A DNA stretch of 64,000 nucleotides from assembly GCA_963796685.1 (NCBI GenBank), contig CAWCMR010000013.1:352001-416000 (forward strand). Reading direction: 5' to 3'. The notes beneath the pieces were generated by a model. That model searched no databases. It saw nothing but the letters and a program-made list of their open reading frames with translations, and had not been told where the DNA came from. Made by a program: the position numbers and the translations under genes. Source of the stretch: an uncultured delta proteobacterium. GTDB lineage: Bacteria > Myxococcota_A > Polyangia > Fen-1088. Below, one piece after another: positions 29,685 through 44,852 of the stretch; position 1 is the first letter of the stretch, and the number at the start of each line of letters is the position of its first letter.

Positions 29685-30671
29685 CTATCCGACTTTCACC
29701 ACCGCGGCCCCCTGCAGCGAGCCTGCACGCAGATCCCGGAGAGCGTCGTTGGTACGTTCGAGAGCGTAAACCGTGGTTTGCGCGCGAATGGAGATGCCGC
29801 GGGCCATGCCCAAGAATTCCTCGCCATCCTTGCGCGTGAGATTGGCGACCGAGCGCAGGACCCGCTCGCCCCAGAGAAGCACGTAGGGAAAGCTCGGGAT
29901 GTCGCTCATATGGATGCCGGCGCAGACTACGGTTCCGCCTTTGCGGACGGCTGCGAGCGCGCGTGGCACCAGTTCCCCGACCGGCGCGAAGATGAGGGCA
30001 GCGTCGAGCGCGACGGGAGGCAAGTCTTCGGCCCCGCCGGTCCAGGTGGCTCCGAGTTGGCGAGCGAAATCCTGACTGGCCTGATCGCCCGCGCGCGTGA
30101 AGGCGTACACTTCGCGCCCCTGCTGGCGCACGATCTGAGTCAGCAGGTGGGCCGCGGCCCCGAATCCGTAGAATCCCAGTCGCCGGGCTTTGCCGGTCAT
30201 GCGTAGGGCGCGGTATCCGATGAGTCCGGCGCACAGCCACGGTGCCACCGCGGTCGCCTCCTCGTTCTCGGGGATGAGCAGGCAAAATCGCGCATCGGCC
30301 ACGCAGTGCTCGGCGAAGCCTCCGTCGAGCTGGTAGCCGGTGTAGAGCGCCCGATCGCAGAGATTTTCCTGCTCGCTCCGGCAGAATTCACATTCGCCGC
30401 AGGCGCCGCCCAGCCAGGGGACGCCCAGCCGCTGTCCGAGTCGGAGCCCTTCGACGTTCGTGCCCAGGCCATCGACCACTCCGACGATCTGATGTCCGGG
30501 CACGAGCGGCAGCTTCGGGCTTTTCAAATCGCCATCCACCACGTGCAGGTCCGTCCGGCAAAGCCCACATGCCTCCACGCGCAATCGCACCTGCATAGGC
30601 CCGGGATGCGGGGCTGGGATCTCCACCAGCTCGAGCGGCTGTCCCTGCTTCTCGAGAATCATGGCGCGCAT
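29685..30671 (-). CDS. zinc-dependent alcohol dehydrogenase family protein
   Basis: CGLCRTDLH, PGHQIVG, CGECEFC..NLC, YGFGAAA. Confidence 0.92.
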   Translation of the reverse strand: MRAMILEKQGQPLELVEIPAPHPGPMQVRLRVEACGLCRTDLHVVDGDLKSPKLPLVPGHQIVGVVDGLGTNVEGLRLGQRLGVPWLGGACGECEFCRSEQENLCDRALYTGYQLDGGFAEHCVADARFCLLIPENEEATAVAPWLCAGLIGYRALRMTGKARRLGFYGFGAAAHLLTQIVRQQGREVYAFTRAGDQASQDFARQLGATWTGGAEDLPPVALDAALIFAPVGELVPRALAAVRKGGTVVCAGIHMSDIPSFPYVLLWGERVLRSVANLTRKDGEEFLGMARGISIRAQTTVYALERTNDALRDLRAGSLQGAAVVKVG

Positions 30672-30706
30672 GACCCCATCAGCCTACCGCGGACCCTGAC
30701 CAACGA

Positions 30707-31177
30707 CTACTCTTTGGCCTCCACCCCTGCCAGCGCCCCGCCGCGGGCTTGCAGGATGAACGTCACCGGACCGTCGTTGACCAACTCGACCTTCATGTCG
30801 GCAGCAAAACGCCCGGTGGCGATATCAACGCCCTCGGCCAGAATGCGCTCGGCCATGCGCAGGTAGAGCTTCTGGGCCAAAGCCGGGTTTTCCGCATGGT
30901 CGAAGCTCGGCCGGTTCCCCTTGCGGGTCGAGCCGGCAAGGGTGAATTGGCTGACGATCAAGCACGCGCCATGAACGTCCTTGATGGACAGATCCATAGG
31001 GGTGCGACCAGGAAAGATGCGCAGGGCGCACAGCTTACGCGAAAGCACGTCCACGTCCGCTTCGCGGTCGCCGCGCTCGACACCCACCAGAACCGTCAGG
31101 CCGATGCCGATCTTGCCCACGACCTCGCTCTCGACGCGAACCTCGGCGCGCGACACGCGCTGAACCACGACGATCAT
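30707..31177 (-). CDS. dtd: D-aminoacyl-tRNA deacylase
   Basis: VVQRVS, VSQFTL, KGNRPSF, NDGPVT. Confidence 0.95.
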
Positions 31178-31207
31178 CGGTCGAGCCCCGACCTGGCACT
31201 CATCTCG

Positions 31208-31281
31208 TGACCCCGGCCTGATTCGAACAGGCGACCTACGGTTTAGGAAACCGTCGCTCTATCCACCTGAGCTACGGGGCC
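31208..31281 (-). tRNA. tRNA-Arg(CCT)
   Basis: minus strand GGCCCCGTAGCTCAGGTGGATAGAGCGACGGT-TTCCTAA-ACCGTAGGTCGCCTGTTCGAATCAGGCCGGGGTCA. Confidence 0.95.
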
Positions 31282-31284
31282 AAA
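31243..31284. repeat. att site, left copy (5' half of the intact tRNA-Arg)
   Basis: TTAGGAAACCGTCGCTCTATCCACCTGAGCTACGGGGCCAAA. Confidence 0.92.
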
Positions 31285-31295
31285 TGGTTTGGGTT

Positions 31296-32534
31296 CTAAC
31301 TACTTAGGGCTACTTTTTCTTCTGCGTTATCTTGCTGCGTGGTGGCCATAGTGTGCCCATTTGGGCCGGCAACGTCGCGAAGAGATACCACGTTCCCCTT
31401 GGGAGTGGAAAGGTCCGCTGGCATGACTTCGTAGTCGGTTTGCCGGAAGAGATCCGCCCGAAGGTGGCTGTATCGCTCGGTGGTGGTGATGCTGGCGTGG
31501 CCCATGATCTTGGATAGCTTCTCAACGCTGCCACCGCCAAGAACAAACTGCGACGCGAACGTGTGTCGGGTGCATTGATACCAGGTCATGGGAGACAGCC
31601 CGCACTTCTTCAGGGCCGCGCGTAGGTGCTTGGCCAGGGTCTGGGGCCTGGTGTACTCCGCGGGCGTCTCTGGCGTGCCACCACGTAGGGGATGGACGGG
31701 CGGAAAGAGTAGGCCCGTGCCGCCCGTGGCGAGCTTCCATTGTGTCAGGACGGGCACCAGGGGGGTCAGCATGGGAACCGCGCGGGAATCGGTATCCTTC
31801 AGCGGCCCGATCCTGCCTCGGTTGACCTGTTGCCGGATGTGAAGGCGCCGGTTCTCGATGTCGCAGTCTCGCCAGTTCAACCCCAGCACCTCGCCCGTGC
31901 GAAGTCCCGCGAACGCGCCGACGGCGAAGGCTACGTTGACAGGCGAGGGCAGCAGCCGGAAGACGCGCTCGATGTCGCTCATCTTCTCGATGAACGCCGT
32001 TGTCCGTGAATCGTGGCCTGGACGGTAGAGGCGCCGAGTAGAACGGGGCAGGGCGCTTACCGGGTTCGCGGGGGCGTGCCCCTGTTCGATGATGTCGGCG
32101 AAGAAGGTCGACATCTGGCGGATCAGATTCCCGACTGTGTTCGCGGCCAAGCCCTTGGCGAGCTTGTCTTCGATGAATCTGCGAAGCTGGGCGGCGTCGA
32201 TCTCGTGCGCCTTCATCTTGCCGAAGGCGGGGCCAAGGTGGGTATTCCACCGGGAACGGTCATCCCGGCATGACCTGTGCGTGGCCTTGCGCCGTTCGAG
32301 CCAAGCCTTTGCCAGCGTTTCGAGGTTCGGGGACTCGTCGTAGTCGCGGGGCAAACCAGCGTCACCGGCGGCGACGTCCCTCGTGATCTTGGCAAGAACT
32401 TGCTCAGCGAGATCCTTCGAGGCGAACGATTTGCAGCACCGCCGGCCATGCTCGCGCCAGCGAATCCACCACCGGCCGCTGCGCTCGAATAGCGAGCCAG
32501 TGCCCCACGTTCGGCGTCGAGGCTTACGAGGCAT
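31296..32534 (-). CDS. tyrosine recombinase (phage-type integrase)
   Basis: arm-binding N-terminus [16 protein letters not shown]; catalytic [29 protein letters not shown]. Confidence 0.95.
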
Positions 32535-32883
32535 AGGCCACCTCGCGGTTGCCGTTGGCCGTCGCGACGAGCGCCCGCACGTGAAATGCCGCACGAATGG
32601 GCAGCGACTGCCGTAGGCGCGCGGCCAGACTCTCGCGGATCTCTTTGCATAGTCCACACTCGAAGTTCGTATCTGTGCGGGTGTTCTCGTTCACGTACAA
32701 CGTGAGCGAGCCACAGACGCAACAGGGCCGCCAGGCCGCGAACCTGACGAGCACGGCGCACAGGTTGCCTTCGATGGGTGCTGGTGTTGGTGGCTTCATC
32801 CTGGCGGCCAGGCATCGCCGCCTGTCCTCTTCCAATTCCGCCGGGGTTGCGGTTCGTTCTCGAACGCGTGCTATCTTGGCCAT
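32524..32883 (-). CDS. hypothetical Zn-finger protein overlapping the integrase start
   Basis: AAGGAG SD; CCVCG...CGLC. Confidence 0.6.
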   Translation of the reverse strand: MAKIARVRERTATPAELEEDRRRCLAARMKPPTPAPIEGNLCAVLVRFAAWRPCCVCGSLTLYVNENTRTDTNFECGLCKEIRESLAARLRQSLPIRAAFHVRALVATANGNREVAYAS

Positions 32884-32994
32884 GTCGGATCTCCTTTCAC
32901 GGGGCGTGAAGACCACGGGGCAGGCTGTTACAGCAGCGCTGCCCCATTTTTGTTGGCGGGGTACTCGTGGCGCGGAGTTAGGGCGCGCGGGCAG

Positions 32995-33249
32995 CTACTG
33001 GCGCGGCTTCGAGTGCTCGGCGATCCAGCTATTCAGGATGATCTTGATAGCTTCGCTTCGGCTGACTCGGGCGCTTCCAGCGGGCTTTTCGTTGGACATG
33101 CGTGCGGCTTCCACGTCCAAGGCTTTGATAAGCGCGGCCGACGCCTTGAAACTCAAGGTCGTGTCCTCATCTGCCGGGCGAATCTTGGGCCGTCCCACGT
33201 CGAGGATTCTCGCTCTTTCCTGCCTGGTAGTCGATTTTTCTGCGTGCAT
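32995..33249 (-). CDS. ribbon-helix-helix (CopG-like) regulator
   Basis: GRPK..TTLSFKAS..LIKALD..VSRSEAIKIIL; TTGACT-17-AAAGAT directly upstream. Confidence 0.7.
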   Translation of the reverse strand: MHAEKSTTRQERARILDVGRPKIRPADEDTTLSFKASAALIKALDVEAARMSNEKPAGSARVSRSEAIKIILNSWIAEHSKPRQ

Positions 33250-33313
33250 GGTTACTATCTTTGCCTGTGGTAGTTATTTAGTCAATAAAGAAACGACACA
33301 GGTGTAGGCTCGC

Positions 33314-33715
33314 CTATTTTTCCGCCCCATTGGGCGCACTTTGGCCACGAAGCACTGCGCCTTTTCGTGCAATTCTCGCCGGTGAATGCGCTGGTAGAGC
33401 ATCGGTTCGCGCATCCGAGGCGCGCCCTTTCGTGGCCAGATCGCCAGCGCACCACGGCTCACCAATGGCTTTGAGCAAGCTCGCCGGGAACCATTCTGGC
33501 ACATGGCCGCCCTGCTCAAGGTATAGGGCAAGCTGGCTGCGCAGCTTCACGAGCGCTCGACCGATTCCCGGATCGTCGGGCCGCCCGGCGCAAAGCCAGC
33601 GGTCCACAGTGCCGTCCAGCAGCGAGGTTGCCCCGCCGTGAAACGCCGCCCAAGTCAGAAGCGCCATGATCGCCAAGGCGACTTCGCCGCGCAGATCGGA
33701 CTCGGTCGCGGTCAT
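33314..33715 (-). CDS. hypothetical protein
   Basis: ATGA-coupled to the DUF5681 gene. Confidence 0.55.
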   Translation of the reverse strand: MTATESDLRGEVALAIMALLTWAAFHGGATSLLDGTVDRWLCAGRPDDPGIGRALVKLRSQLALYLEQGGHVPEWFPASLLKAIGEPWCAGDLATKGRASDARTDALPAHSPARIARKGAVLRGQSAPNGAEK

Positions 33716-34392
33716 GGCTCGTCCCTGGCCTTGGGCGGTTCGTTTCCTCGCAAGGTCCCAGCCGCTGGCTGTGTCTGGTCCGCAGATTCCTGCGCCGCCG
33801 CCGGGCCAGCCGTAATCGCTCGCGCTGGCGTCTCGCCGTCCAGCATCGCCTGTATCTCCTCGGGCGACTTGTTGGCCACGTTCTTGCCGAGGAGCTTGAG
33901 CACGAGAGCCACCTTCGCCTGGTCGATCGACAGCAACAGGCGCACCATCTCGCCGAATTCTGACTCGCGCATATCGCCGCTGACCAGTCGATGCCGATAC
34001 ACGTCGACCGTGATGTCAAGCAAGCTGCGCGTGGTGTCGATGCCCTCGGGAATGTTGACGGGCCGTTCTGCCTTGGCGGGAAGGCCGGCGTAGTATTCGA
34101 GCAGCGTGCGGATGGTCTGGTCGCTGCCCCTGTCCCCGCCGATGGCACGGTCGAATGCGGCTTCCATGATCCTGCGAAAACGCGTTTTGTCTCCGTCGAA
34201 TGGTTCGTCGAGAAACCGGGCCACCTCGGTGGCCTTGTCCCTGCCGTTGATGCCGCGGGGGTTCCCTGTCTCACCCTTGCGGAAAGGCGGCCGGAGATTG
34301 GCGAGTCTCCGCGCCCTGGCGGTTGCCTTGGCGTCCATTTCCGCTTCGGTTCCTTGGCCGGTGGTAGGTAGCGAATCGTCCAAGGTGTTCAT
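33712..34392 (-). CDS. DUF5681-motif protein (small terminase-like)
   Basis: NLRPPFRKGETGNPRG signature followed by a helical domain. Confidence 0.7.
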   Translation of the reverse strand: MNTLDDSLPTTGQGTEAEMDAKATARARRLANLRPPFRKGETGNPRGINGRDKATEVARFLDEPFDGDKTRFRRIMEAAFDRAIGGDRGSDQTIRTLLEYYAGLPAKAERPVNIPEGIDTTRSLLDITVDVYRHRLVSGDMRESEFGEMVRLLLSIDQAKVALVLKLLGKNVANKSPEEIQAMLDGETPARAITAGPAAAQESADQTQPAAGTLRGNEPPKARDEP

Positions 34393-34640
34393 GGCTGGCC
34401 CCCTAATGCTTCACCGTTGCCGGGAATCGCGGCGTCTTGCCACCGTTCGCGCCGCGTTGGCGCTTCCCTGGTATCTCGCCGCCTTGGCACGGGCCTAAGC
34501 TCGAAAAGGGGGCAGGACGGCGTCGTGCAGGCTTCGACCTGTTGGCGCCAGGTCCCGCCACCTACAGGATCGAAGATGCAGCCCTTGCACGCGGCGTTGA
34601 TTGCCCGGCGCATACTCGGCCGTGTGGATGCGGGCTTCAT
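34389..34640 (-). CDS. small Cys-rich phage/satellite-type protein
   Basis: RRAINAACKGC..QVEAC..CPLFELRP; ATGA overlaps on both sides. Confidence 0.65.
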   Translation of the reverse strand: MKPASTRPSMRRAINAACKGCIFDPVGGGTWRQQVEACTTPSCPLFELRPVPRRRDTREAPTRRERWQDAAIPGNGEALGGQP

Positions 34641-34837
34641 CGGTACAGCCCTTCGTGTTGCGCCGTCTTGCCAAGGCAAGGCCCTTGCTGCCTCGGTGGG
34701 CTCTTGCGCTTGTGGCGCTCAATCTCGCGCCAGCACCCGAGGCAGACGATTGCACCGGCGGTGAAGTGAGCTTCTCGCCACTCGCTCGCTCCGCAGACGC
34801 GGCATGCCTCGCGCTGCCCAAAGCTTCGTTCACTCAT
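34637..34837 (-). CDS. small Zn-ribbon protein
   Basis: AAGGAG SD; CRVCG..CLGC. Confidence 0.55.
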   Translation of the reverse strand: MSERSFGQREACRVCGASEWREAHFTAGAIVCLGCWREIERHKRKSPPRQQGPCLGKTAQHEGLYR

Positions 34838-35075
34838 GAGCGCTCCTTTCTCTCGCCAGACGTTTCGTCGAATTCGTGCCGCCTAACGTGGTGCCATGAA
34901 CGCCCAACGCGTGCGGGCGCGCGCTGAGCGTGAGGTAGGTTTTCGCCAACTGTGGCGATACCTCATCGCGCGCGTGCGCGCGTGAGGGTTCAACGTGCGT
35001 GTGCGCGCGCGTGAGCTTGAAGGCAGGCGACGATGCGTGCGCGTGAGCCTTCCCTGTTCGTTTCGCCGCGGTCAT
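34830..35075 (-). CDS. hypothetical protein overlapping GCGCGTGAG repeats
   Basis: ATGA-coupled to the primase stop; low-complexity AH repeats. Confidence 0.4.
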   Translation of the reverse strand: MTAAKRTGKAHAHASSPAFKLTRAHTHVEPSRAHARDEVSPQLAKTYLTLSARPHALGVHGTTLGGTNSTKRLARERSAHE

Positions 35076-37624
35076 TGCAATCCCTGCGGCTTGGGCTCCC
35101 TGGCCAAGAACTCACCCACGGTCGGCGCGGGCGCAGACCGCCAGTAGGACCACAAGCGTTGGCCGGCCGCCTCTGCCGTGCCATTCAGCCCCCGGAAGTG
35201 CTCGGCTAGGGCGTCGCGGTCGCCATCGCTGGCCATGGTGCCGGGCTTGGCCCGGAGGCAGTGGGCAAGCTGGGCCAGCGGATCAGGCGCGTCCGCAGCG
35301 GTGGTCAGGTGGTCAGGTGGTGGGCAGCATTTCCCCCCTTCCTTCGTAGAACTATCTTCTCGCGGGAGGGATAGGGGGTTTTGCTGACCACTCCTGACCA
35401 CCTGACCACCGTCCGTCAAGAGTCCGAGCCCATGCCAGCCCCGGACAGATTCCCCGGATACCTTCATTTTCGCGTCGACGATGCCGCGCCGCTTGAGGTG
35501 GTCGCCAAACTCGCGGGCGTGCATCGGGTGCTCGCCCTCGCGGGCGCACCATGCCTCGTAGCTGGTGCGGAGCGCAGAGCGCGACACGCGCGCGTCCGGT
35601 GCCAGTAGGCAGCACTCGCCGAGGTACGGGGCCAGCCGGTCGGACTCCTCGCGATACTCGGCCGTGGCCGCGACGATGGAAGCGCACGCCGATTCGAGGC
35701 ACCGAGGATCGCGCTGCCAGGCCGCGCACCCTACAAGCGCCCAATTCAGGATGCCGGGTAGCTCCGCCCGGAGCTTCGCCGGCAAATCCAGATCCCGACG
35801 CTCTGGCGGAACCACACGATCAAACGGAATGAGCTTGAGACGTCGCCAGATGCCTTCGTCTTGCCCGCGCACGATCGGCTTGTGGTTGCCGGTGAGCACC
35901 ACCTTGTGGGTCGGCTTCCAGGTGACTGGCCCCTCGAACAGGTTTCGGGCCGTCATGGTGTCTGCGCTCGCGAACGCCTTCACTCGTGGTTCGTCGAATT
36001 TGCCGGCGGGCAGCTCCGGAAACAGTGCCCAGCGTGCTCCGCGCAACGGCATGATCTCGCACGCATGCCCCTGGTACTCTTTGGCCATGAGCACCGAGGC
36101 GGGCAGCACGGTCGCGTAGTCACCCAGCAACGCCCCCACCGTTTCGCAGAGCACTGACTTGCCGTTGGCCCCCAGACCGTACAGGAACACCACGACATGA
36201 TTTTTCGTCGAGGCAGTGAGGCAGAATCCGATGAATCGCTGGAGGAATGCGATTGTCTCGCTGTCGGGCAACACCTCGTCGAGAAACTGCGTCCACCTCG
36301 GACACGTGGCCGCCGCGTCGAATGCGACGGGCGCGAGCTTGGTAATTCTGTCCGCCGGGCTGTGCGGGCGCAGTGACCCGGTTTGCAGGTCGATTGCGCC
36401 ATTCGCACAGTTGAGCAACGATGGGTCCGCATCGAATTGCCCGGCCATGGTGGTCAGTCCGAGGTTCGCGGCGGTGGCTCCCTCAATCAGCTTTCGCCGA
36501 CCTGCAACGGTGTTGTAGCGTTTGGCGATCGCCAGACGGGCCTTGTATTGCTGGCCCAGCGGATCGTTGAGGGCATCGCGCAGATACGCCTTTGCAACTT
36601 CGATTGCCTCGCCAAGTAACCAGCACTCGCCCGAATCGCGCACCCACCGCGCGCCGTCGTATCGATACCAGGCGAGCGCATCTGTCGCATACAGGGCGCG
36701 ACCACGAATCAAATCGGCAAACCGCTGCGTCGCCAGCGCGTCCTCAAGCACACCGTCGTAGGACCGGCCGACGCCGTCGGTTGCAATTGATGGATCGTCG
36801 GCCGTCACCGCCGGTTGCGACGCGGGCCGCGGTGCCGGCGTCCATTCTGGCGCCGCTGCAACCAGAGCGCGCAACTCCTCGACGGTGTGCCCGGCGGCCA
36901 ACCAATCGCACACGTCACCTTTTGCAGGCAGGGCGGGCAGTTCGATCACCTTGAGCGAGGCAGCCACGCTGCGCAGCGATTGGGCCACGTGCGCGGCGTG
37001 CTTGGCTCCGGGCGGGTCGTTGTCGGGCAGGATGACAACGTGCCGGCCGGTGAAGGGTTCGCGGAAGCGCTTCGTGTCCCAGAGCTTGGTGCTGCCGGTG
37101 CCGCCGGGGTTCGTGGTCGCAACCAGGCCCAGTGCGGCCAGCGCATCGCAATCCTTCTCTCCTTCGCAGCCGAACACCGGAGCGTCCGCCGGGGCTGCCA
37201 GTAGCGCCGGCAGGCGGTAAGGGATTCGCTCGATGTCTTTCAGGTTCCAGATCCACCGATCGTCCGGTCCGCGCCTCCGCGGTCGAAAGTCTTTGGGGTT
37301 GAATCTGCAAATCTCGAAGCGAACCGCGCCGGCCGTCTCCTCGTAGGGATAGACGGCGACGATTCGTGGCTTGATCGCCGGGGTCTCTGCCCGTGGTGGA
37401 AGGACGTCAGGCCAGGTCAACCCCAGCGCCCTGAGAATCGCATCGCCTGAACCTTCGCCGTGCCCTTGATCGTAGAGTAAGACGATGTCGCCCTGGAATT
37501 CCAGGGATCCAGACGCGTTCTTCTCTTCACGCAGCGGCGATAAGAACTTCCACTTGTTGGCACCTGTTGACCGCAGCTTGTACGGCTGTAGCCTCTGAAG
37601 CAGGAGTGTTTGGCCAGTAGTCAT
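35072..37624 (-). CDS. P4-family primase-helicase (TOPRIM + D5_N + SF3 helicase)
   Basis: CEGEKD..LPDNDPPG..KGDVCDW (TOPRIM); LLNCANGAIDL; GLGANGKS Walker A; GNHKP..IWRRLKLIPF. Confidence 0.93.
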   Translation of the reverse strand: MTTGQTLLLQRLQPYKLRSTGANKWKFLSPLREEKNASGSLEFQGDIVLLYDQGHGEGSGDAILRALGLTWPDVLPPRAETPAIKPRIVAVYPYEETAGAVRFEICRFNPKDFRPRRRGPDDRWIWNLKDIERIPYRLPALLAAPADAPVFGCEGEKDCDALAALGLVATTNPGGTGSTKLWDTKRFREPFTGRHVVILPDNDPPGAKHAAHVAQSLRSVAASLKVIELPALPAKGDVCDWLAAGHTVEELRALVAAAPEWTPAPRPASQPAVTADDPSIATDGVGRSYDGVLEDALATQRFADLIRGRALYATDALAWYRYDGARWVRDSGECWLLGEAIEVAKAYLRDALNDPLGQQYKARLAIAKRYNTVAGRRKLIEGATAANLGLTTMAGQFDADPSLLNCANGAIDLQTGSLRPHSPADRITKLAPVAFDAAATCPRWTQFLDEVLPDSETIAFLQRFIGFCLTASTKNHVVVFLYGLGANGKSVLCETVGALLGDYATVLPASVLMAKEYQGHACEIMPLRGARWALFPELPAGKFDEPRVKAFASADTMTARNLFEGPVTWKPTHKVVLTGNHKPIVRGQDEGIWRRLKLIPFDRVVPPERRDLDLPAKLRAELPGILNWALVGCAAWQRDPRCLESACASIVAATAEYREESDRLAPYLGECCLLAPDARVSRSALRTSYEAWCAREGEHPMHAREFGDHLKRRGIVDAKMKVSGESVRGWHGLGLLTDGGQVVRSGQQNPLSLPREDSSTKEGGKCCPPPDHLTTAADAPDPLAQLAHCLRAKPGTMASDGDRDALAEHFRGLNGTAEAAGQRLWSYWRSAPAPTVGEFLAREPKPQGLQ
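35300..35410. other. putative replication origin: inverted iteron arrays inside the primase 3' end
   Basis: GGTGGTCA x2 + GGTGGGCA (35300-35326) facing TGACCACT + TGACCACC x2 (35385-35410). Confidence 0.65.
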
Positions 37625-37920
37625 CGCCGCGCCTCCGCGGCCAGCGCCGCCACCGTGGCCCGGTCAATGGGCCGGAGGCTGGCCAGGTCCACGCGGATAG
37701 AGCGCCCATGTCGGACACACGGGTAGGTGCCATCCGCAATTCTACGTCTCACCGTTGCGGGCGAGCCGTACCCTAGTCGCACGAGTTCGGCCACGGTCAC
37801 GAGTCGGCTTGGGCTGGCCGCGCGGAGTGCATCCACTGTCGCGCGCAGCTCACGAATTTCGCCAACAAGAGGCGCGACGGCTGCGCCCACGACGTCGGCC
37901 AGGGCGGTGTCGAGGCTCAT
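37621..37920 (-). CDS. excisionase-like HTH DNA-binding protein
   Basis: LVTVAEL..SPATVRRRIADG..RHGRSIRV. Confidence 0.8.
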   Translation of the reverse strand: MSLDTALADVVGAAVAPLVGEIRELRATVDALRAASPSRLVTVAELVRLGYGSPATVRRRIADGTYPCVRHGRSIRVDLASLRPIDRATVAALAAEARR

Positions 37921-38135
37921 GGCCGCACCGTGGGGGTGATGGGCGCCAGCGCCTCGCGCACTATGAGGAACGTGCCGCGATGGATGGGCAGGGCGCCCCG
38001 GATGCGGTCGACCGTGTTCCGGGATATTCCGAGTAGCTTGCAGGTCCTCGCCAACCCTTCGCGGGCAAGCAGATGGCGAACCGCGGCGACTACCGCCGGG
38101 GGCGGTGTAACCAGGCCGAGTTGATTCTGAGGCAT
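37917..38135 (-). CDS. small HTH protein (Cro-like)
   Basis: LARTCKLLGISRNTVDRI; ATGA-coupled to the excisionase. Confidence 0.6.
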   Translation of the reverse strand: MPQNQLGLVTPPPAVVAAVRHLLAREGLARTCKLLGISRNTVDRIRGALPIHRGTFLIVREALAPITPTVRP

Positions 38136-38198
38136 GCCATAATTAGGGCCACGCCCGCGGACCTAGAGACAGGGATACAAAATCCCAGCCGACCAACT

Positions 38199-39494
38199 CT
38201 ATTTTGTATCTGGGATTGATCGTTTGAGTCGATTGCGGACAGCTTTTCGGAGGTTCTGCGGTGTGTGGGGGTCCGGGTCAAGACGCAGGTTCTTTCGGTC
38301 GAGGATCGTCGCCACTGCCCTCCAATCTTTCAAGCCACGGGCATTCAACGCAACAGCAGCGTCCACGGCTGGCTTTGGAGGCCTCTTCCTCGGCCGCCCG
38401 AGACTCTGGCACATGGCCCGCGCCTCGTTGGCCACCGCAGCGAGATCGCGCGCCGTGAGTGCGACTTCGTCGGCAGTACAGGGCTCACCCCTGGCGATGC
38501 AGTCCACAAGCCACGCCGCACGAGGGACGCCGTCAGCAGCCAATCGCGCACCCTCCAGAATGCGAAGGAGAGGCAGCAACACTTCATCTCTCACGGTCGC
38601 AGCGTTACCTGGCGTAACGAGAAGCGGGGGCAGGTCCTGGGCCGCCCGGTCAGCTAGATGCGCGATCTTGGGTGCCAGCATTCTCAATTCTTCGTTGCGC
38701 TCTTGAGTCTTGGCTGCAGCCTCAGCCGGCGCAACGGCATCGCAAGCCGCCGCCCACTTGCCTTGTCGGCGATACTCAGCCAAGGAGGCTTCGGCAGCTT
38801 CGACTGCCTTGGGAGTGTCGCCGTACTCCGAGATCGCATCCTGTAGGAGTTCCTTCCGCATCATGTCTTCGTCGCTGGGCCTTGGCTCCGCCGCAATCTC
38901 CCGCGCTTTGTCCTCCGGCAAGAAGGTGCGGAGGATGGCGACGGTTTGCTCTTCTGCCCACCTGGGATCAACCACTGGAGGGGGCGTAGGCAGGCGGTCC
39001 TGGAACGATTGCCCGTCCTCATAGATCTCGTGCATGAGCTTGGCCGCTGGACCGAACACACTGCCCAACGCGTTAAATATCTCGAAGAATTGGTCCTGCT
39101 CCACCTTCGGCAGATTCGCCCACCACTTCCGAATTGCTTGCTCGTCAGCGTCGGATAGTTCGGAGAGAAAGCTCGAAAGTTCTTCCTCAGGTTGCCCTTT
39201 TGGTTCTCGCGTCTTCTTGTAGGCGTCGGCGAGCTGGCTGAATTTCTCGACCGGATCAACTTCGCACTTGCGGTTGCCTTCACTCTTTCCCGTGGACGGC
39301 CTCGGGGCTCGCTTCTGGCGGGCCTTCACCGCTTCCCCGGCATCTTGCCCAACCTCGACCGTGCTCGTCGCACTAGTGCTCGCTGACTTCGCCTGGCACG
39401 GATTCTTGGGGGGGGTCGACACGGTTGCATTCCCTGCATTCCGTTTCGAGGAAGGAAGCCGGGCAGGGCCGTGCGGGAATGCGCGCCGGCCCAC
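38199..39494 (-). CDS. hypothetical protein with basic C-terminal HTH-like region (start uncertain)
   Basis: 431-aa ORF; C-terminus GRPRKR..WRAVATIL..LRKAVRNRLKR. Confidence 0.55.
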   Translation of the reverse strand: MGRRAFPHGPARLPSSKRNAGNATVSTPPKNPCQAKSASTSATSTVEVGQDAGEAVKARQKRAPRPSTGKSEGNRKCEVDPVEKFSQLADAYKKTREPKGQPEEELSSFLSELSDADEQAIRKWWANLPKVEQDQFFEIFNALGSVFGPAAKLMHEIYEDGQSFQDRLPTPPPVVDPRWAEEQTVAILRTFLPEDKAREIAAEPRPSDEDMMRKELLQDAISEYGDTPKAVEAAEASLAEYRRQGKWAAACDAVAPAEAAAKTQERNEELRMLAPKIAHLADRAAQDLPPLLVTPGNAATVRDEVLLPLLRILEGARLAADGVPRAAWLVDCIARGEPCTADEVALTARDLAAVANEARAMCQSLGRPRKRPPKPAVDAAVALNARGLKDWRAVATILDRKNLRLDPDPHTPQNLRKAVRNRLKRSIPDTK

Positions 39495-39718
39495 GGTTCG
39501 GGGATCAGTCCGATCCGCTGCCCGGATCTAGAGTAGCAGCTTAATGCAGAAATCGACGTTGCAGCTCTGGGATCGCCTACCGTGCCCATGGGCGGAACCA
39601 TGCCTTCCGTATCGCGCCTGCCGGTGGTCAGACCGCGCGGGCGCTTCTGTTTCAAGCTGCCAAGGACGGCGGCGGATGACTAGACGGCCTAGGCCGGCAA
39701 GCGTGCCGGAGCAAGGCG

Positions 39719-40015
39719 CTACCCGCCCGTGACCCTGCGCCTCGGCTTGATCGGCCGGCCGACCGGCCGTCGGATTGGGGGCTCGGCAGACCGACGGAAT
39801 AGGCGCGCCAGGGGTACACCAAAGGCCTCCGCCGCTGCCACAACGGTTCTGAGTGTAGGATTCAAGGCCCCATATTCGAGTTTTTGCAGGTGCTTGAGAT
39901 CGATCCCCATGGCGTCGGCCGCCTGCTGCTGCGACCATCGACGGGCAGCACGTAGGTGCGCCAGATTCGCGGAAAGATTCCGCTTGGCGCTCTCGAAGGA
40001 CGGCTGTGAGACCAT
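39719..40015 (-). CDS. XRE-family HTH regulator
   Basis: NLAHLRAARRWSQQQAADAMGID..LEYG..NPTLRTV..AEAFGV. Confidence 0.85.
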   Translation of the reverse strand: MVSQPSFESAKRNLSANLAHLRAARRWSQQQAADAMGIDLKHLQKLEYGALNPTLRTVVAAAEAFGVPLARLFRRSAEPPIRRPVGRPIKPRRRVTGG

Positions 40016-40153
40016 GTCCCACCCGTAGCGGCAAACGGCTCCACCAAAAACCTCACCAATGGGGTAATATGTGCATTCTGGTGCCGACAGACCTTTCCAC
40101 CCGGACCATGGAGAAGGCACCGAAACTAGGTTTTCTTCAAATGGAGGGATGAC

Positions 40154-40609
40154 ATGAAGTGGACGCTTGTGGTTCTCCTGGCAGCCGTGGCCGCGTCTGG
40201 CTGTGGAAGCGGGTCAAGCGACCCACTACAAGGAACTTGGGTCGACAACCCCGGCACGGCGGCGGCGGTCCAGGCGATCTTCAAGGGCGACGCATGGGAG
40301 ATCGATACGATCAGCGTGCTGACAACTGGCTCGACCGGGTTGGAGTCAGATTCAGGCACGTACGTTCTTTCAGGCAGCACGATCATGTTTACGACGACAA
40401 AGTCGAGCTGCGAGGGCGTGGACACTGTTGCCAAAACGTTCACGGCGACATTCAGCACCCAAGGGCAAAGCCTGACCATGAACCTTGGAACGACTGTCCT
40501 CCTATTTCAAAAAGCGACTGCACCACCTCAAGGAATGGGAGGCGCGAGCGTGGGCTGCTTCGACTCCCAGGGCAACTTCACGGTCAACCCGATCAAGACC
40601 GTTCCCTAG
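40154..40609 (+). CDS. lipoprotein (lipocalin-like beta barrel)
   Basis: GGAGG SD; lipobox AASGC; LQGTW motif. Confidence 0.7.
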   Translation: MKWTLVVLLAAVAASGCGSGSSDPLQGTWVDNPGTAAAVQAIFKGDAWEIDTISVLTTGSTGLESDSGTYVLSGSTIMFTTTKSSCEGVDTVAKTFTATFSTQGQSLTMNLGTTVLLFQKATAPPQGMGGASVGCFDSQGNFTVNPIKTVP

Positions 40610-40671
40610 TGCGCCGGGTTCGTTTCGACCGCCTTTTGGCCAAAAGGGCGAGACGGCGTGATAATAGCACC

Positions 40672-41472
40672 ATGAAGAGGCTCGCCTTAGGAGGGATGGC
40701 TGCCCTGACAGCCCTGCTTTCGCATTGGGGGTGCGCGACTCTCACTCCAGAGCAAGCTGCCGAACGAAGGCGGGAGAGGGATGAGGAAAACCAGCGAAGG
40801 GTGATGCAGCGGGAACTCGCGACGTCACCGCCGCCAGTCGCCCCCTACACCGCCCGCCCACCGCTCTGCAACGAGACAAGATCGCCCGGCGTCATCAAAG
40901 TTACCTGCCGGGCCTACGACAATGTGCCATGGTACACAGGGGCAATTTTCGACCAAGTCCATCGGATGGCCGCCGAGTCCACGCTCGCCGCCGGCAAGTC
41001 CTACTTTCAAAGCCTAGGAATAGTGATTCTGGGTGTTCAGACTACCCAACCAATCTGCCGCGAAGAGGTTGATCGGACGTCCGCAGTGCTTGTTGGGATA
41101 GGCAATGCGCTAAGTGGGGCGGGCGAAACTAAGACCAGGTGCTCCACCACTGTGGGCAATGACGTTGAGTGCACCACAACGCCTGCCCCCCCGCCTGCAC
41201 GGCCCAAGTCCAGGACTGTCTGCGAAGGTGGTGGGGAACTTCAATGGATCGACTCGGTGGAGTCCTTTGAGATGCTAGATGCGGATCAGGCTGCCGCTCG
41301 TAGTGATCCCTTGATTCCCTCTGCGAAGCGGCCTATCGAAGCACGCGCGGTTCTCGCGCCAAGAACCGCAATTCAGCCGGTTCCCGCCAGTCGGGTGGCG
41401 CCCATCAGCCAGCCGTCGCGGTCCCGTCAGAACGCGGAAACTGACCGAAAGTCCGACCCCTTCGAGAAATAG
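40672..41472 (+). CDS. hypothetical lipoprotein
   Basis: MKRLALGG..HWGC lipobox-like signal. Confidence 0.6.
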   Translation: MKRLALGGMAALTALLSHWGCATLTPEQAAERRRERDEENQRRVMQRELATSPPPVAPYTARPPLCNETRSPGVIKVTCRAYDNVPWYTGAIFDQVHRMAAESTLAAGKSYFQSLGIVILGVQTTQPICREEVDRTSAVLVGIGNALSGAGETKTRCSTTVGNDVECTTTPAPPPARPKSRTVCEGGGELQWIDSVESFEMLDADQAAARSDPLIPSAKRPIEARAVLAPRTAIQPVPASRVAPISQPSRSRQNAETDRKSDPFEK

Positions 41473-41747
41473 TGCCCAGTCCCGTGTGCGGCGCCTTCCG
41501 GCGATCTTGCACCAGCTAGAGAAGGTCATGAGTTTGGGCACCTCGCAGGCCAAGCTCCCCGGCGGCCCATCGGTTTGGTCTGTCAGGTGCGTCGGATGTT
41601 GTCCTGGCGCATGGTGGCCATAGTGTGCCCAATCGCCCCTAAGAGGTGCCCATTTCTGGCGGTCATACCTTTGCCACAACCGAGAGAAAACCACGCCGTG
41701 ATTGGGGTGACGGTGCCCCTTGTTCACGGGCCGTAAAAACCAAGCTC

Positions 41748-41789
41748 TTAGGAAACCGCCGCTCTATCCACCTGAGCTACGGGGCCAAA
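41748..41789. repeat. att site, right copy (displaced 5' half of tRNA-Arg)
   Basis: TTAGGAAACCGCCGCTCTATCCACCTGAGCTACGGGGCCAAA. Confidence 0.92.
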
Positions 41790-41855
41790 CGGTTGAACCA
41801 TTAGATAGTCTGTTTCGCGGCGGAGATCCATCCTCGGATGCGGCGTTGTTCTCGC

Positions 41856-44852
41856 TCAGCCCTTGGGCTTGGCCGGGGATGGCGACGGGACGGGGCGCGC
41901 GAGGCCGGGGGCGGTTGGGGCATTGCCTTCCGGTGCGAGCGGGGTTCCGAGATCCACGGGGGGCTCGTCACCGATGGTCATGGGAAGGTCCAAGACACCC
42001 TCGCCCTGTGGGGTGGGGGGCACCGAGGCACCGCCTTGTTGTGGAGGCGGGGAGGGGGGCGCCAGGGAGGCGGGAAGGACGGTCTCGGAAAGCTCCGGCG
42101 ATAGTGGCCTGAGGCTCATCGTCAGCCTGCCGGCCCGCGCGGATCCCGTCGTGGGGGCCACGGTTTGCGCGACGGCCGGGGAAGTCGGGGAAATCAGGTC
42201 CACGATGGGCGTGTCCTCGAGTGAGATCTCGATTCCAGCCGGTCCCTTGGGCTCGACGGGGGTCGCGGTTGCTGGACCACCGCCCGCGGCAGCGGGGGAC
42301 TGGAAGACCGTGGCGGACGTCGCAAGCGCATGGGCGAGCGTTCCCGATGCGTCCGGGGCCTTGGTCATGTAAGAGGCGGCGTCGTCGACCTGCCGTTCGA
42401 GAGCGCGCGACACGAACTCCTGCCGCCGCTCCCACACCAGGTTGATGGTCATGTCGTGGACCTTCGCCTTCACCACGTGGTAGGGCCGATCGACGGTCAT
42501 TTCACGCGCGCTCACGCGGATGACATGAAATCCCTTCTGCATCTTCAACGCGACCCTGCCGTCCTTGCCCGTGGCCACGGCCTTGGCGCGCTCGTCGTCG
42601 AGCCACACCCGCGCACCTTCGACCGGGCCGCGATCGTCGACGACGAGGATCTTGAACTCGGCTTCGGCGGCCTCAAGGACATGGGCGACGAAGGATGTCT
42701 TGCGCGCCTGCACTGCCACTTCCTGGGGCGGCTCTCGCAGCAGCATGGTTTGGCGGCCTCGGGTGTAGATGCCGTAAAGGTGAACGTACCACTTGCCGCG
42801 CGGGATCCCGCGGAAGGTCGTGTTCTGGTCGATGTTCCAGGCTTCGAAGCGCCGCTTGCGCTTCCCCAGCCACTCCAGCTTCTTGCGATAGGCGGTCAGG
42901 TTGGTGATGGACGGCGTGTGCGGCGAGCGGGAGATGAGAATCGAGAACAGCTCGTCCTTGGCATCCGAGTCCCACTGCACCCTGACCACGATGGTGCCCC
43001 GCAGCGAAAGCGCGATGGCCCAGGCGAGCGTGGCCAGGAAGGCCAGCGCGATGAGCCCGATGAGAAGCGGGTTCAGCACCATCAGACCGGTCGAGCGTCC
43101 CACGAGCGAGGTCTCGATGCGGTCGGCCCGCTGGTGTGCGACGTCGTACAGGACTAGCTCGAGCGTCACCCACGGCGCCAAACTGGCGGGCCGAATGCGA
43201 TAGAGCAGGAGCGCACCGCAGCCCAGATCGTGGGCCATGGTGGCGATGCCCTCGTCGGTCAGACGCGCGGGCGGCAGGATCTCGGTTTCAATCTTGGCCC
43301 GGGTCGCTTGCAGCTCCCACGGCGCGCGTCGCAAGGCTTCCAGCAGGCCTTCGCTCATGTGCTCCTTGCGCACGAGAAAGGGCCAGTAGAAGGGCTGGCC
43401 GCTACCCGGCAGGGCAGCGATCTGGATGGTCGAGAGGGCGGGGTCGTAGAGGTTGTCGAAGCCTTGGAGGATCTGGCGCAGGTTGCTTGCGAGCGGGCTA
43501 GGGGGCCCGCTTGGCTTTTCTGGTCCAATGTCCGCCGCGATCGCCTTGGCCTCTTCCTGGCGCTTGACGAGCTTCTGCGACAGACCGGCCGAGGCCCTGT
43601 CCGCTTCCGCGCCGAGGCGCGCGCTGATGGCCTTGACTTGATCGGCGTTGAGCTCCTGGACCTGAACCAGCGAGGCCGCTTGCCCTGCCTGTTCGCCGGA
43701 CGCGAGCGCTCTGGCGGCCAGGGTCGAGGCCAGTCCAGGTTCTTGGAACGCGAGCTTCTCGGCCGCCGCCAGCGCCGCAGCTTCCGTCTTGGGACCGAAC
43801 GTGCCAGGGGCCGTGGCGGCGATGATGGGCAGAAGGGGGCGCCATTCCGATGCTGGTCTTCCCACCAGCGGCGCAAGGGCGGCGTCCCGATTGTCGATGG
43901 GGTCGCCGCGCGCGATGGCCAGGGACACCGCCCCCAGCGCGGTGGCCGACAAATTGTGCGACCCGCGCAGCAAGGTCAGCTCGGCTTCCGCCGCGGGGAA
44001 GCTCTTGAGGGCAGCCAGAGCGCGCACTTTGGTCGCGCGCAAGGCGGCGTTTTGGGGGTTCGTGGACAACCCGTCATCGGCCAGTTGGACGGCGACGGCC
44101 CAATCGCCAAGCAACAACCTTGCCTGGGCACGGGGGAGGGCAGGCAGGGCAGGATCCTCGGCCAGAGTGAGCAGGATGTTCCTGGCGCCCGCCAAACGGG
44201 ACACGACTGCGGGCAGCGCGAGATCGACGGCACGCGACGCCGCCGCCGGATCGCTCGACACCATGGCCGACTCGGCCGCGAGGAAGGGGCGCACGTCGGC
44301 GAGTCCGGCCTCGGCCATGTCGCCCAGCGTGACACCGATGGCCGGAGCGATTCGCCTGGCCAGCCTTCGGGCGAGCTCGGCCACGTCGCCAGTCGCTGCC
44401 GAGGCGGAAATGCGCAGGAGTCGCCTGCCGCTCGGTCCGATCATGGTGCCGGCCACGGTCGTGCCCTTCTGACCTACCTGCAGCTCCCACAGAATCAAGG
44501 CATCGGCCGCCATGCGCTCGATGAGCCTGGTCCCGATGTCGCTGGACACGGTCAAGTCCTTTCCGGGAGCTTTCCCCGTCAGCGCCTCGATGGCCAAGGC
44601 CAATTCACGCCTGGGCGCGATGACGCGCTGGCCAGGCTGTCCGGTCGATAGGTAGGATCGCACGAGCAGTGAAACGGCTCCGGCCAATTCGGCCTGGTCG
44701 GGCACGGCCATGGGATCGGGAACGACGACCACCTCGGCGGATGCCTTTCCGGACAGGCCGAGCGCCCATGCGCAGGCCAGGCCCGCAGCCAGAAATCTTC
44801 CCCTGGCCGCACCAAACGGCGACGGAGGCGACAGGGACGGGCACGGACGCAT
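41856..44852 (-). CDS. large membrane-anchored hypothetical protein (TPR-like periplasmic part, TM, cytoplasmic beta domains, Pro-rich tail)
   Basis: 998-aa ORF with signal peptide and one internal TM. Confidence 0.7.
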   Translation of the reverse strand: MRPCPSLSPPSPFGAARGRFLAAGLACAWALGLSGKASAEVVVVPDPMAVPDQAELAGAVSLLVRSYLSTGQPGQRVIAPRRELALAIEALTGKAPGKDLTVSSDIGTRLIERMAADALILWELQVGQKGTTVAGTMIGPSGRRLLRISASAATGDVAELARRLARRIAPAIGVTLGDMAEAGLADVRPFLAAESAMVSSDPAAASRAVDLALPAVVSRLAGARNILLTLAEDPALPALPRAQARLLLGDWAVAVQLADDGLSTNPQNAALRATKVRALAALKSFPAAEAELTLLRGSHNLSATALGAVSLAIARGDPIDNRDAALAPLVGRPASEWRPLLPIIAATAPGTFGPKTEAAALAAAEKLAFQEPGLASTLAARALASGEQAGQAASLVQVQELNADQVKAISARLGAEADRASAGLSQKLVKRQEEAKAIAADIGPEKPSGPPSPLASNLRQILQGFDNLYDPALSTIQIAALPGSGQPFYWPFLVRKEHMSEGLLEALRRAPWELQATRAKIETEILPPARLTDEGIATMAHDLGCGALLLYRIRPASLAPWVTLELVLYDVAHQRADRIETSLVGRSTGLMVLNPLLIGLIALAFLATLAWAIALSLRGTIVVRVQWDSDAKDELFSILISRSPHTPSITNLTAYRKKLEWLGKRKRRFEAWNIDQNTTFRGIPRGKWYVHLYGIYTRGRQTMLLREPPQEVAVQARKTSFVAHVLEAAEAEFKILVVDDRGPVEGARVWLDDERAKAVATGKDGRVALKMQKGFHVIRVSAREMTVDRPYHVVKAKVHDMTINLVWERRQEFVSRALERQVDDAASYMTKAPDASGTLAHALATSATVFQSPAAAGGGPATATPVEPKGPAGIEISLEDTPIVDLISPTSPAVAQTVAPTTGSARAGRLTMSLRPLSPELSETVLPASLAPPSPPPQQGGASVPPTPQGEGVLDLPMTIGDEPPVDLGTPLAPEGNAPTAPGLARPVPSPSPAKPKG

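Follow-up and report, generated by a model that had tools for sequence, protein, structure and literature searches.

A reversed-orientation integrated element at tRNA-Arg(CCT) and its integrase clade in Myxococcota

The tRNA-Arg(CCT) locus and the integrated element

The window analyzed here is a stretch of 64,000 nucleotides (nt) from an uncultured delta proteobacterium assigned to the Polyangia (assembly GCA_963796685.1, contig CAWCMR010000013.1, positions 352,001 to 416,000). It contains an integrated element of ~10.5 kb (31290-41747), the genes of which are mostly on the minus strand and point towards an intact gene for tRNA-Arg(CCT) (31207-31281, minus strand). ARAGORN calls three tRNA genes in the window, including this one, which is the sole Arg-CCT tRNA among the 50 tRNAs called in the 7.3-Mb genome. 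The element is bounded by a direct repeat (D3) and is absent at the empty sites of relatives. We consider it probable that this element, integrated in reversed orientation, rebuilt the tRNA gene, that the tRNA is now transcribed from element DNA, and that this is a generic by-product of the mode of integration.

D3 consists of two copies of 47 nt (31243-31289 and 41748-41794) with two mismatches (96% identity), which pair at E = 6.5e-18 (blastn-short, within 15 kb). The integrase-proximal attachment (att) copy (31243-31289, minus strand) reaches from the anticodon loop to tRNA base 1 plus 8 nt upstream, and carries the A27 of the element. The other copy (41748-41794, minus strand) is the displaced host 5' half with G27, its bases 1-39 being found at 41786-41748, preceded by 8 nt of native upstream sequence. 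This fragment (tRNA positions -7 to 39) has the same orientation as the intact gene and is located 10.5 kb upstream of it. The 7-nt anticodon loop (TTCCTAA on the minus strand) ends at 31243, and the copies diverge at the next base (t at 31242, c at 41747). From the end of the loop, the identity is unbroken through the tRNA 5' end (31281) and 3 nt further, apart from one base within the tRNA; on the upstream side, a mismatch at 31285 is followed by four further matches. The base within the tRNA is the second mismatch (t at 31254, c at 41759), which results in an A27-U43 pair in the intact gene and a G27.U43 pair in the displaced half. The integrase gene ends with TAG at 31298-31296, and 14 nt separate this stop codon from tRNA base 1 on the same strand. 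An earlier note, made by a model from the letters alone, had described a duplicated segment that begins 3 nt before the tRNA 5' end and ends with the anticodon loop, a co-oriented tRNA ~14 nt after the integrase stop and a one-base difference between the copies (A-U intact, G-U displaced). All of this agrees with the coordinates given here.

For the comparison of flanks, 41 genomes (40 relatives and the own genome) were searched with the right flank, and both flanks were then compared by BLAST with the loci obtained. Three relatives (G002, G001 and G011) have an empty site, where both flanks are adjacent and the element is absent. The order at these sites is a TPR-like gene, ~65 nt, the intact tRNA-Arg(CCT), about 30-50 nt, and dtd. 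The DNA upstream of the tRNA matches the window from 41795 onward in all three, and this native upstream region holds a conserved block, GGATGGATCTCC...GAAAC.G.CTATCTAA. These empty sites show that the segment 31290-41747 displaced the host 5' half together with its upstream region. The earlier note had placed the element upstream of the intact tRNA, with the host 5' half and the native upstream region stranded at 41748 onward, and the empty sites concur: the upstream sequence of G002 corresponds to 41795 onward, not to 31285 onward, and dtd directly follows the tRNA. When compared with the empty site, the intact tRNA-Arg(CCT) is a hybrid, with a host-derived 3' part (31207-31242, minus strand) and an element-derived 5' part up to the anticodon loop (31243-31281, minus strand). 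Position 27 of the native tRNA is G in G002 and A in G001 and belongs to a C-G pair in G011; it varies naturally.

The host genes around the element are dtd (30707-31177, minus strand; PF02580, E 6.1e-50), which is co-oriented and follows the tRNA, the co-oriented adh for a zinc alcohol dehydrogenase (29685-30671, minus strand; PF08240, E 6.7e-28), and the gene for a TPR-like protein of 998 aa (41856-44852, minus strand), which stops 69 nt short of the displaced tRNA start. The linkage of the tRNA with dtd across a short gap is retained in relatives, and the gap in the window is 30 nt. Co-transcription of dtd is therefore reasonable, and no terminator-like site was found between tRNA-Arg(CCT) and dtd. 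The gene is probably on the transcript of the tRNA, as it would be at the empty site. At the same tRNA-Arg(CCT) site of a relative (L079, G010:C14:651539-664500), ~8 kb devoid of a detectable integrase are found between the TPR gene and the tRNA. Three nested repeats of the 3' part (positions 26-95, 49-95 and 49-77) follow that tRNA, which therefore also served as a target in the usual orientation.

The integrase of the window element is a tyrosine integrase of 412 aa when started from the ATG at 32534 (31296-32534, minus strand); the longest open reading frame (ORF) reaches 32657. It matches PF00589 (E 7.9e-17, 62 bits against a cut-off of 27.1) and phrog_1 (E 2.1e-51). R212, K246, R323-H324, H346 and Y355 are invariant in an alignment of 20 sequences from relatives. 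In the integrated state, the ORF is complete and neither att copy is disrupted. The element also codes for a primase-helicase of 850 aa (35072-37624, minus strand) with a D5_N domain and a P4-family primase C-terminal domain (PF08706, E 2.2e-27; TIGR01613, 247.5 bits against a cut-off of 108.7; phrog_6088, E 1.1e-130). Within the 3' part of its gene, there is a perfect 19-nt inverted repeat (35299-35317 and 35393-35411, with 75 nt between the arms), and the arms are themselves composed of a tandem GGTGGTCAG unit. Upstream of the primase-helicase gene are two small helix-turn-helix (HTH) proteins (37621-38135, minus strand), one of 99 aa with a weak HTH_17 match and one of 72 aa with an HTH_23 match, both below the Pfam cut-offs. 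The 99-aa protein, which is common to eight of 20 related elements, is possibly an excisionase.

For 14 of the 16 ORFs, PHROGs returned no match, and the remaining ORFs of the element have no family in Pfam, PHROGs or NCBIfam. Gene content is a mosaic across the elements of the integrase clade. The gene calls at 40126-41727 are ambiguous: two minus-strand ORFs (117 and 150 aa) overlap one of 437 aa on the plus strand (40159-41472), with no family match for any of them, and the GC content at third codon positions (GC3) does not discriminate between them.

Putative arm-type sites were found close to both ends of the element. The P arm has two repeats, TGGGCAC and TGGCCAC, at 31342-31359 (minus strand, 11-nt spacing, within the integrase tail), and the P' arm has three copies of TGGSCAC at 41614-41652 (minus strand), 100-150 nt inside the far end. 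There are nine minus-strand copies of TGGSCAC in 31200-41900, five of them within ~150 nt of the element ends, a distribution that reads as the layout of arm-type integrase sites. The integrase tails of relatives carry paired repeats of their own at the same place, e.g., TGGTTAC, GTGGCAACC and ATTAGATAC.

Related integrases and free attP forms

Integrase homologs (E <= 1e-20) are present in 53 of 89 genomes of the same bacterial family, and 44 distinct homologs from this family could be placed relative to tRNA genes. In 29 of the 44, a co-oriented tRNA follows the integrase stop within 40 nt; two more have a co-oriented tRNA ~800 nt from the integrase, two have a convergent tRNA, four have a divergent tRNA-Leu(CAA) upstream of the integrase, and for seven the arrangement was not placed or the gene is at a contig end. 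The targets include tRNAs for Arg (CCT, CCG, TCG, ACG), Thr-CGT, Val (TAC, CAC), Gly-CCC, Lys-CTT, Ser (TGA, CGA), Leu (TAG, TAA) and Asn-GTT, with about a dozen amino-acid identities overall.

A species-wide scan, queried with an alignment of 20 integrases, gave 80 loci, which overlap with the family set. An earlier scan with a single integrase as query had produced 73 pattern matches, none of which was confirmed, and was redone with the alignment. All 80 loci are from metagenome-assembled genomes (MAGs) titled myxobacterial or "delta"/unclassified proteobacteria (Polyangia, Labilithrix, Anaeromyxobacteraceae, Myxococcaceae and others). The tRNA is co-oriented within 150 nt in 40 of them and convergent in three, 24 have no tRNA, and 13 belong to other classes. 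At one of these loci (L163, a named MAG record), ARAGORN calls a tRNA with a four-base anticodon (tttt) 7 nt after a clade integrase; this may be a miscall or an odd tRNA.

Distal repeats of a tRNA 5' half (positions about 1 to 36-42) were found in 14 integrase-bearing loci, at a distance of 5-17 kb. Among 21 longer loci that were examined, 11 have a 5'-half repeat, two (L058 and L063) have the usual 3'-part repeat, which starts at tRNA position 29/32, and eight have none within reach. Thirteen further integrase loci added 5'-half repeats in L070, L072 and L076; many of the others end at contig edges. One locus (L196) has a T-loop 3' repeat in the usual orientation.

The integrase phylogeny that the earlier note had proposed supports a clade-wide habit. 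In a tree of 66 rows (a quick IQ-TREE run, LG+G4), a clade of 56 rows (SH-aLRT 96) contains 40 with a co-oriented tRNA, 15 without an assigned arrangement and one that is convergent. The sister group is a trio, two convergent and one co-oriented, and a tree of 44 rows agrees. On these trees, the reversed orientation is the rule in this Myxococcota clade, with at least two changes of state. The own genome also contains a sister integrase (L063, G000:C6:51087-52420; 45.5% identical), which faces tRNA-Leu(CAA) in convergent orientation; here the 3' part of the tRNA is duplicated, from position 29 to its end and 12 nt beyond. One genome and one protein family therefore accommodate both the usual and the reversed orientation. 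In a separate clade (L060-L062 and L039, integrases ~40% identical), the integrase is divergent from tRNA-Leu(CAA), the 5' end of which is ~100 nt away; a search over 17 kb gave no att repeat for this group.

The integrase group was also found on viral contigs. Seventeen loci from IMG/VR, with integrases that are 33-54% identical, were compared with a library of 221 tRNAs. None of the 17 has a complete tRNA. Three of them (L198, L208 and L209) have a stretch of 41-42 nt which is identical or 98% identical to positions 1-41/42 of a tRNA, namely tRNA-Gly(CCC), tRNA-Arg(CCT) and tRNA-Phe(GAA). Each 5' half starts 7-18 nt past the integrase stop and gives way to unrelated DNA. In all three, the core is preceded by paired repeats, which recur beyond it in L208 and L209. 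These loci are direct evidence that tRNA 5' halves travel with the mobile genomes of this integrase group; this form of attP, having the 5' half only, was seen in these relatives, not in the window element. The three contigs have 38-54 kb, and the integrase group serves phage-sized genomes and 10-kb elements alike. A fourth locus has a tRNA match of 22 nt, and the other 13 have no match to the library of 221 tRNAs. When a phage collection was searched with the integrase (tblastn), 247 records matched, all with <60% identity; among the 15 matches listed, identity is <=28% and there is no myxophage.

Candidate promoters and the source of the tRNA transcript

Two promoter-like motifs precede the tRNA on the element side. 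The first, P1 (31382-31411, minus strand), consists of TTTCCA (31411-31406), a spacer of 18 nt and TGG TATCTC (31390-31382), i.e., TTTCCA-N18-TGGTATCTC. It is located in the C-terminal coding tail of the integrase, past the catalytic Tyr, ~100 nt before the tRNA. In the subclade of the window element, the hexamer TT[GT]CC[CA] and TG[GC]TA are kept at a fixed spacing while the intervening 15 nt vary. The pattern is present in 10 of 48 distinct junctions, with 0.0014 expected per 170 nt. TGnTATC is retained where the peptide shifts from VVS to VLS, and it uses the rare codons GTA and CTA (GTA accounts for 4-8% of Val codons).

A corresponding motif is found at native host tRNAs. In the intergenic region between tRNA-Phe and tRNA-Arg(TCG) of eight genomes from the genus, TTCCCC-N17-TGnTATCAC is the sole conserved block upstream of the native tRNA-Arg(TCG), the rest being unalignable, and this has the appearance of a classic promoter footprint. 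P1-type motifs also precede tRNA-Arg(TCT) on contig C22 of the own genome and, in G009, a displaced tRNA-Gly half, by 13-22 nt.

The second motif, P2, is the -10-like hexamer TAAGTA (31301-31306, minus strand), 19 nt before the tRNA, which overlaps the last integrase codons. Most junctions have a P2-type TAAnnn at ~19-20 nt from the tRNA, irrespective of reading frame. In L057, L059, L130 and L140, -35 hexamers (TTGAC/TTGAT-type; TTGATC in L130) are found 17-18 nt upstream of it; there is no good -35 for P2 in the window element. The three viral contigs with a tRNA 5' half have a TAAG-type -10-like hexamer before it, and L198 also has the P1-type motif TTTCCC-N18-TGGTATCCA.

On the host side, a candidate native promoter (41802-41830, minus strand) with TGGATC (41830-41825), a spacer of 17 nt and TATCTA (41807-41802) is stranded and faces into the element. 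The block TGGATC-N17-TATCTA is conserved upstream of the native tRNA in the three relatives with an empty site. It obtains a weak score (2.9) from a position weight matrix (PWM), which was trained on 16 host tRNA promoters (TTGnnn-N16-18-TAnnnn).

A mechanism can be proposed from this layout. Integration would be a site-specific recombination within the anticodon loop of tRNA-Arg(CCT), with the element in reversed orientation. The attP would comprise the tRNA sequence from base 1 to the end of the anticodon loop and the element's own DNA upstream of it, located after the integrase stop and flanked by arm-type sites. Recombination would join the 5' half of the element to the 3' half of the host, and would move the host 5' half and its native upstream region 10.5 kb away, so that the stranded host promoter would point into the far arm of the element. 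Element DNA would drive transcription of the rebuilt tRNA and probably also of dtd and adh. The likeliest source is P1, as an extended -10-type promoter, and P2 and read-through from the integrase gene may contribute. RNase P would then trim the leader of the tRNA. The geometry, the empty site, the clade-wide habit and free attP forms with a 5' half only are observed; the transcription part of this account is inferred, and it is likely that tRNA-Arg(CCT) now depends on element sequence for its transcription.

Several points weigh against P1 as the source, and against the account more generally. A strict sigma-70 scan found no promoter-like site in 30600-33400 and 41200-42200. The PWM scores of P1 (7.5) and P2 (6.5) are not significant, and the best score on the element side (9.0) is reached by 6% of random 170-nt windows of the genome. 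With a score of only 2.9 on the native side, the power of the PWM is low. The -10 of P1 lacks a T at its last position, and the motif is ~100 nt away from the tRNA with the putative arm sites in between. By regular expression, P1 is confined to the subclade of the window element (the 10 of 48 junctions given above). The sequences that bear it are homologous, so their conservation does not count as independent evidence. The integrase fossil in G004 encodes VVS without TGGTAT, which places part of the tail conservation in the protein. The assembly is a MAG (88.6% complete, 6.5% contamination).

We consider it unlikely that the tRNA, in the same geometry, has no dedicated promoter and is made by read-through from the integrase gene or an element operon, a route put forward for the pTN3-like elements of archaea, with P1 and P2 reflecting coding or recombination-site conservation. 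The 14 nt between the integrase stop and the tRNA hold no terminator-like site, nearly all element genes point at the tRNA, the PWM scores are insignificant, and the G004 fossil lacks TGGTAT, all of which fits this explanation. It sits awkwardly with relatives in probably indispensable tRNAs (Arg-ACG, Arg-TCG, Val-TAC, Phe-GAA, Met-CAT) if the integrase is normally repressed. Moreover, fossils without an integrase promoter still hold the tail beside working-looking tRNAs, the P1 motif stands out as a phylogenetic footprint upstream of a native tRNA, and several relatives have a clean TTGACG-N18-TAAGTA immediately before the tRNA.

The earlier note had gone further and proposed that integration and excision act as a promoter switch. 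As a regulatory device that tunes the AGG tRNA (and dtd/adh) to the benefit of the element or of the host, such a switch is in our judgment very improbable. The promoter regions are truly exchanged, and putative arm sites are located between P1 and the tRNA, where bound integrase could in principle modulate P1. Against this stands the same architecture in relatives at tRNAs of about a dozen amino-acid identities, and tRNA-Arg(TCT) is also present in the genome. A tRNA-Arg(TCT) could read AGG by wobble. An enrichment of AGG in the element as a reason to control tRNA-Arg(CCT) was considered and rejected, with 12.6 AGG per 1000 codons in the element and 8.9 in the host flanks, which is similar. 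What was taken for a switch is better described as a generic by-product: the promoter exchange looks like a structural consequence of how this integrase clade integrates rather than a device for the AGG tRNA. An assembly artefact, i.e., a chimeric contig with the element misjoined via the 47-nt repeat, could be suspected in a MAG with 6.5% contamination. We give it hardly any weight, as the structure of both junctions recurs exactly at 13 integrase-bearing loci of other genomes, the flanks share synteny with relatives, the repeat copies differ at two bases as expected for element versus host, and the contig has 700 kb.

Remains of integrase tails at tRNA genes were found in addition to complete elements. 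In G004, G005 and G012, tblastn detects only C-terminal integrase fragments (~99, 32 and 115 residues) beside tRNA-Arg(CCT). Such decayed copies, which keep the tail next to the tRNA, support a possible function for the tail. Contig C15 of the own genome has a second reversed element at tRNA-Gly(CCC) (L048, G000:C15:424146-425457), with an integrase that is 57% identical. Before its displaced tRNA-Gly half, there is an integrase-tail relic (L197, C15:412900-413104) with P1, degenerate arm repeats and TAGCCTAA. This relic begins ~10 nt before the -35 of P1, directly after a host gene, which suggests that the upstream region of this tRNA-Gly(CCC) may have been overwritten more than once.

The regions upstream of tRNA-Arg(TCT) (L087, C22:174758-174864) and tRNA-Arg(TCG) (L086, C25:1655695-1655760) read as an integrase-tail-like peptide (…DLxxPxGxVVSL…) and carry a P1-type motif that precedes the tRNA by 13-22 nt. 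Over ~55 nt, the C22 sequence and the integrase tail of the element L026 are near-identical. These regions may be either relics of elements or the source of a captured integrase tail.

Taken together, these observations tempt us to a tentative reading, which we would not put at even odds. Myxococcota may have seen a radiation of reverse-orientation integrases that carry a host-type tRNA promoter in their tail, on phage-sized genomes and on small primase elements, with each integration overwriting the 5' half and the promoter of a tRNA, and with decayed tails staying behind as permanent tRNA promoters. If so, the traffic of mobile elements has repeatedly rewritten tRNA promoters, and the TTCCCC-N17-TGnTATCAC promoters of tRNA-Arg(TCG) and tRNA-Arg(TCT) in the genus would be integrase-tail relics. 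The converse is possible as well: the integrase tail may be a captured tRNA-Arg promoter.

Significance and comparison with known systems

A clade that hits tRNAs of about a dozen identities would incur a cost that is payable if the element brings its own (candidate) promoter. The junction is a compact natural system, in which an integrase tail, putative arm sites, promoter-like motifs and a tRNA 5' half are found within ~170 nt. With both integrated and free forms at hand, changes of target and orientation of attP are open to study, and the same system bears on how core genes come to carry lasting traces of mobile elements in their expression signals. Annotation tools that seek only 3' fragments will miss reversed islands.

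In the passages of the Islander paper that deal with tRNA-gene (tDNA) fragments, 3919 islands are counted, 3760 with a 3' fragment and 159 with a 5' fragment. In the islands of the latter class, the displaced 5' part is located upstream, and the element supplies a 5' part together with upstream DNA, as in the window. A crossover centered on the anticodon loop is a further likeness. Unlike in that class, the habit here spans an integrase clade of Myxococcota, and a candidate promoter is located in the integrase tail. A passage of Krupovic et al. 2019 calls recombination at the 5'-distal part "considerably less frequent". A paper on archaeal tyrosine recombinases (PMC8371274) states, in its section on this matter, that bacterial tRNAs retain their own promoter in all but very few cases. 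The earlier note had taken restoration of the 3' part with an untouched promoter as the norm. Islands with a 5' fragment, a known minority, and tRNAs expressed from an element promoter are already in print, and the arrangement is less singular than the note implied.

The closest archaeal parallel, going by the portion of the same paper that describes them, is the pTN3-like integrases of Thermococcales, for which attB is also a tRNA 5' half, the tRNA is expressed from the integrase promoter, and which are seldom met in bacteria. Their attP is described there as being inside the integrase gene, which is split upon integration ("suicidal"). The window integrase differs: its ORF is intact when integrated, the core is located after its stop codon, and the host is a bacterium.

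There is reportedly an anticodon-loop class of tyrosine integrases, in which the 7-nt loop is said to be the overlap region and the symmetric stem to provide the core sites. The window element resembles the usual anticodon-loop integrases in that the 3' end of the integrase gene adjoins attP, and relatives from the same family (L058 and L063) use the usual mode. It differs in that the tRNA is flipped relative to the integrase, the 5' half instead of the 3' half is duplicated, and the promoter is displaced. In its sequence pattern, the attP may be comparable to that of heterobivalent integrases of the lambda type, with short element-specific repeats, as putative arm-type sites, that are paired or tripled on both arms, 60-150 nt from the core; here, in contrast, the putative P-arm sites are inside the coding tail of the integrase.

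P4 integrates at the 3' end of a tRNA-Leu gene. With P4-like satellites and other small primase-integrase elements, the window element shares an integrase, a P4-family primase-helicase and a size of ~10 kb. Unlike in these satellites, no other P4 gene was recognized in the element (Pfam, PHROGs, NCBIfam), and the same integrase clade also occurs on viral contigs of 38-54 kb.

Full-text word searches of open-access literature returned no description of a Myxococcota clade of 5'-half integrases. What seems to be undescribed is the clade-wide extent in Myxococcota, the presence of a promoter-like motif in the tail of the integrase, and the relics of such tails at host tRNAs. The kind of integration as such is already known from reversed-orientation islands and pTN3-like integrases, and the window element is a further case.

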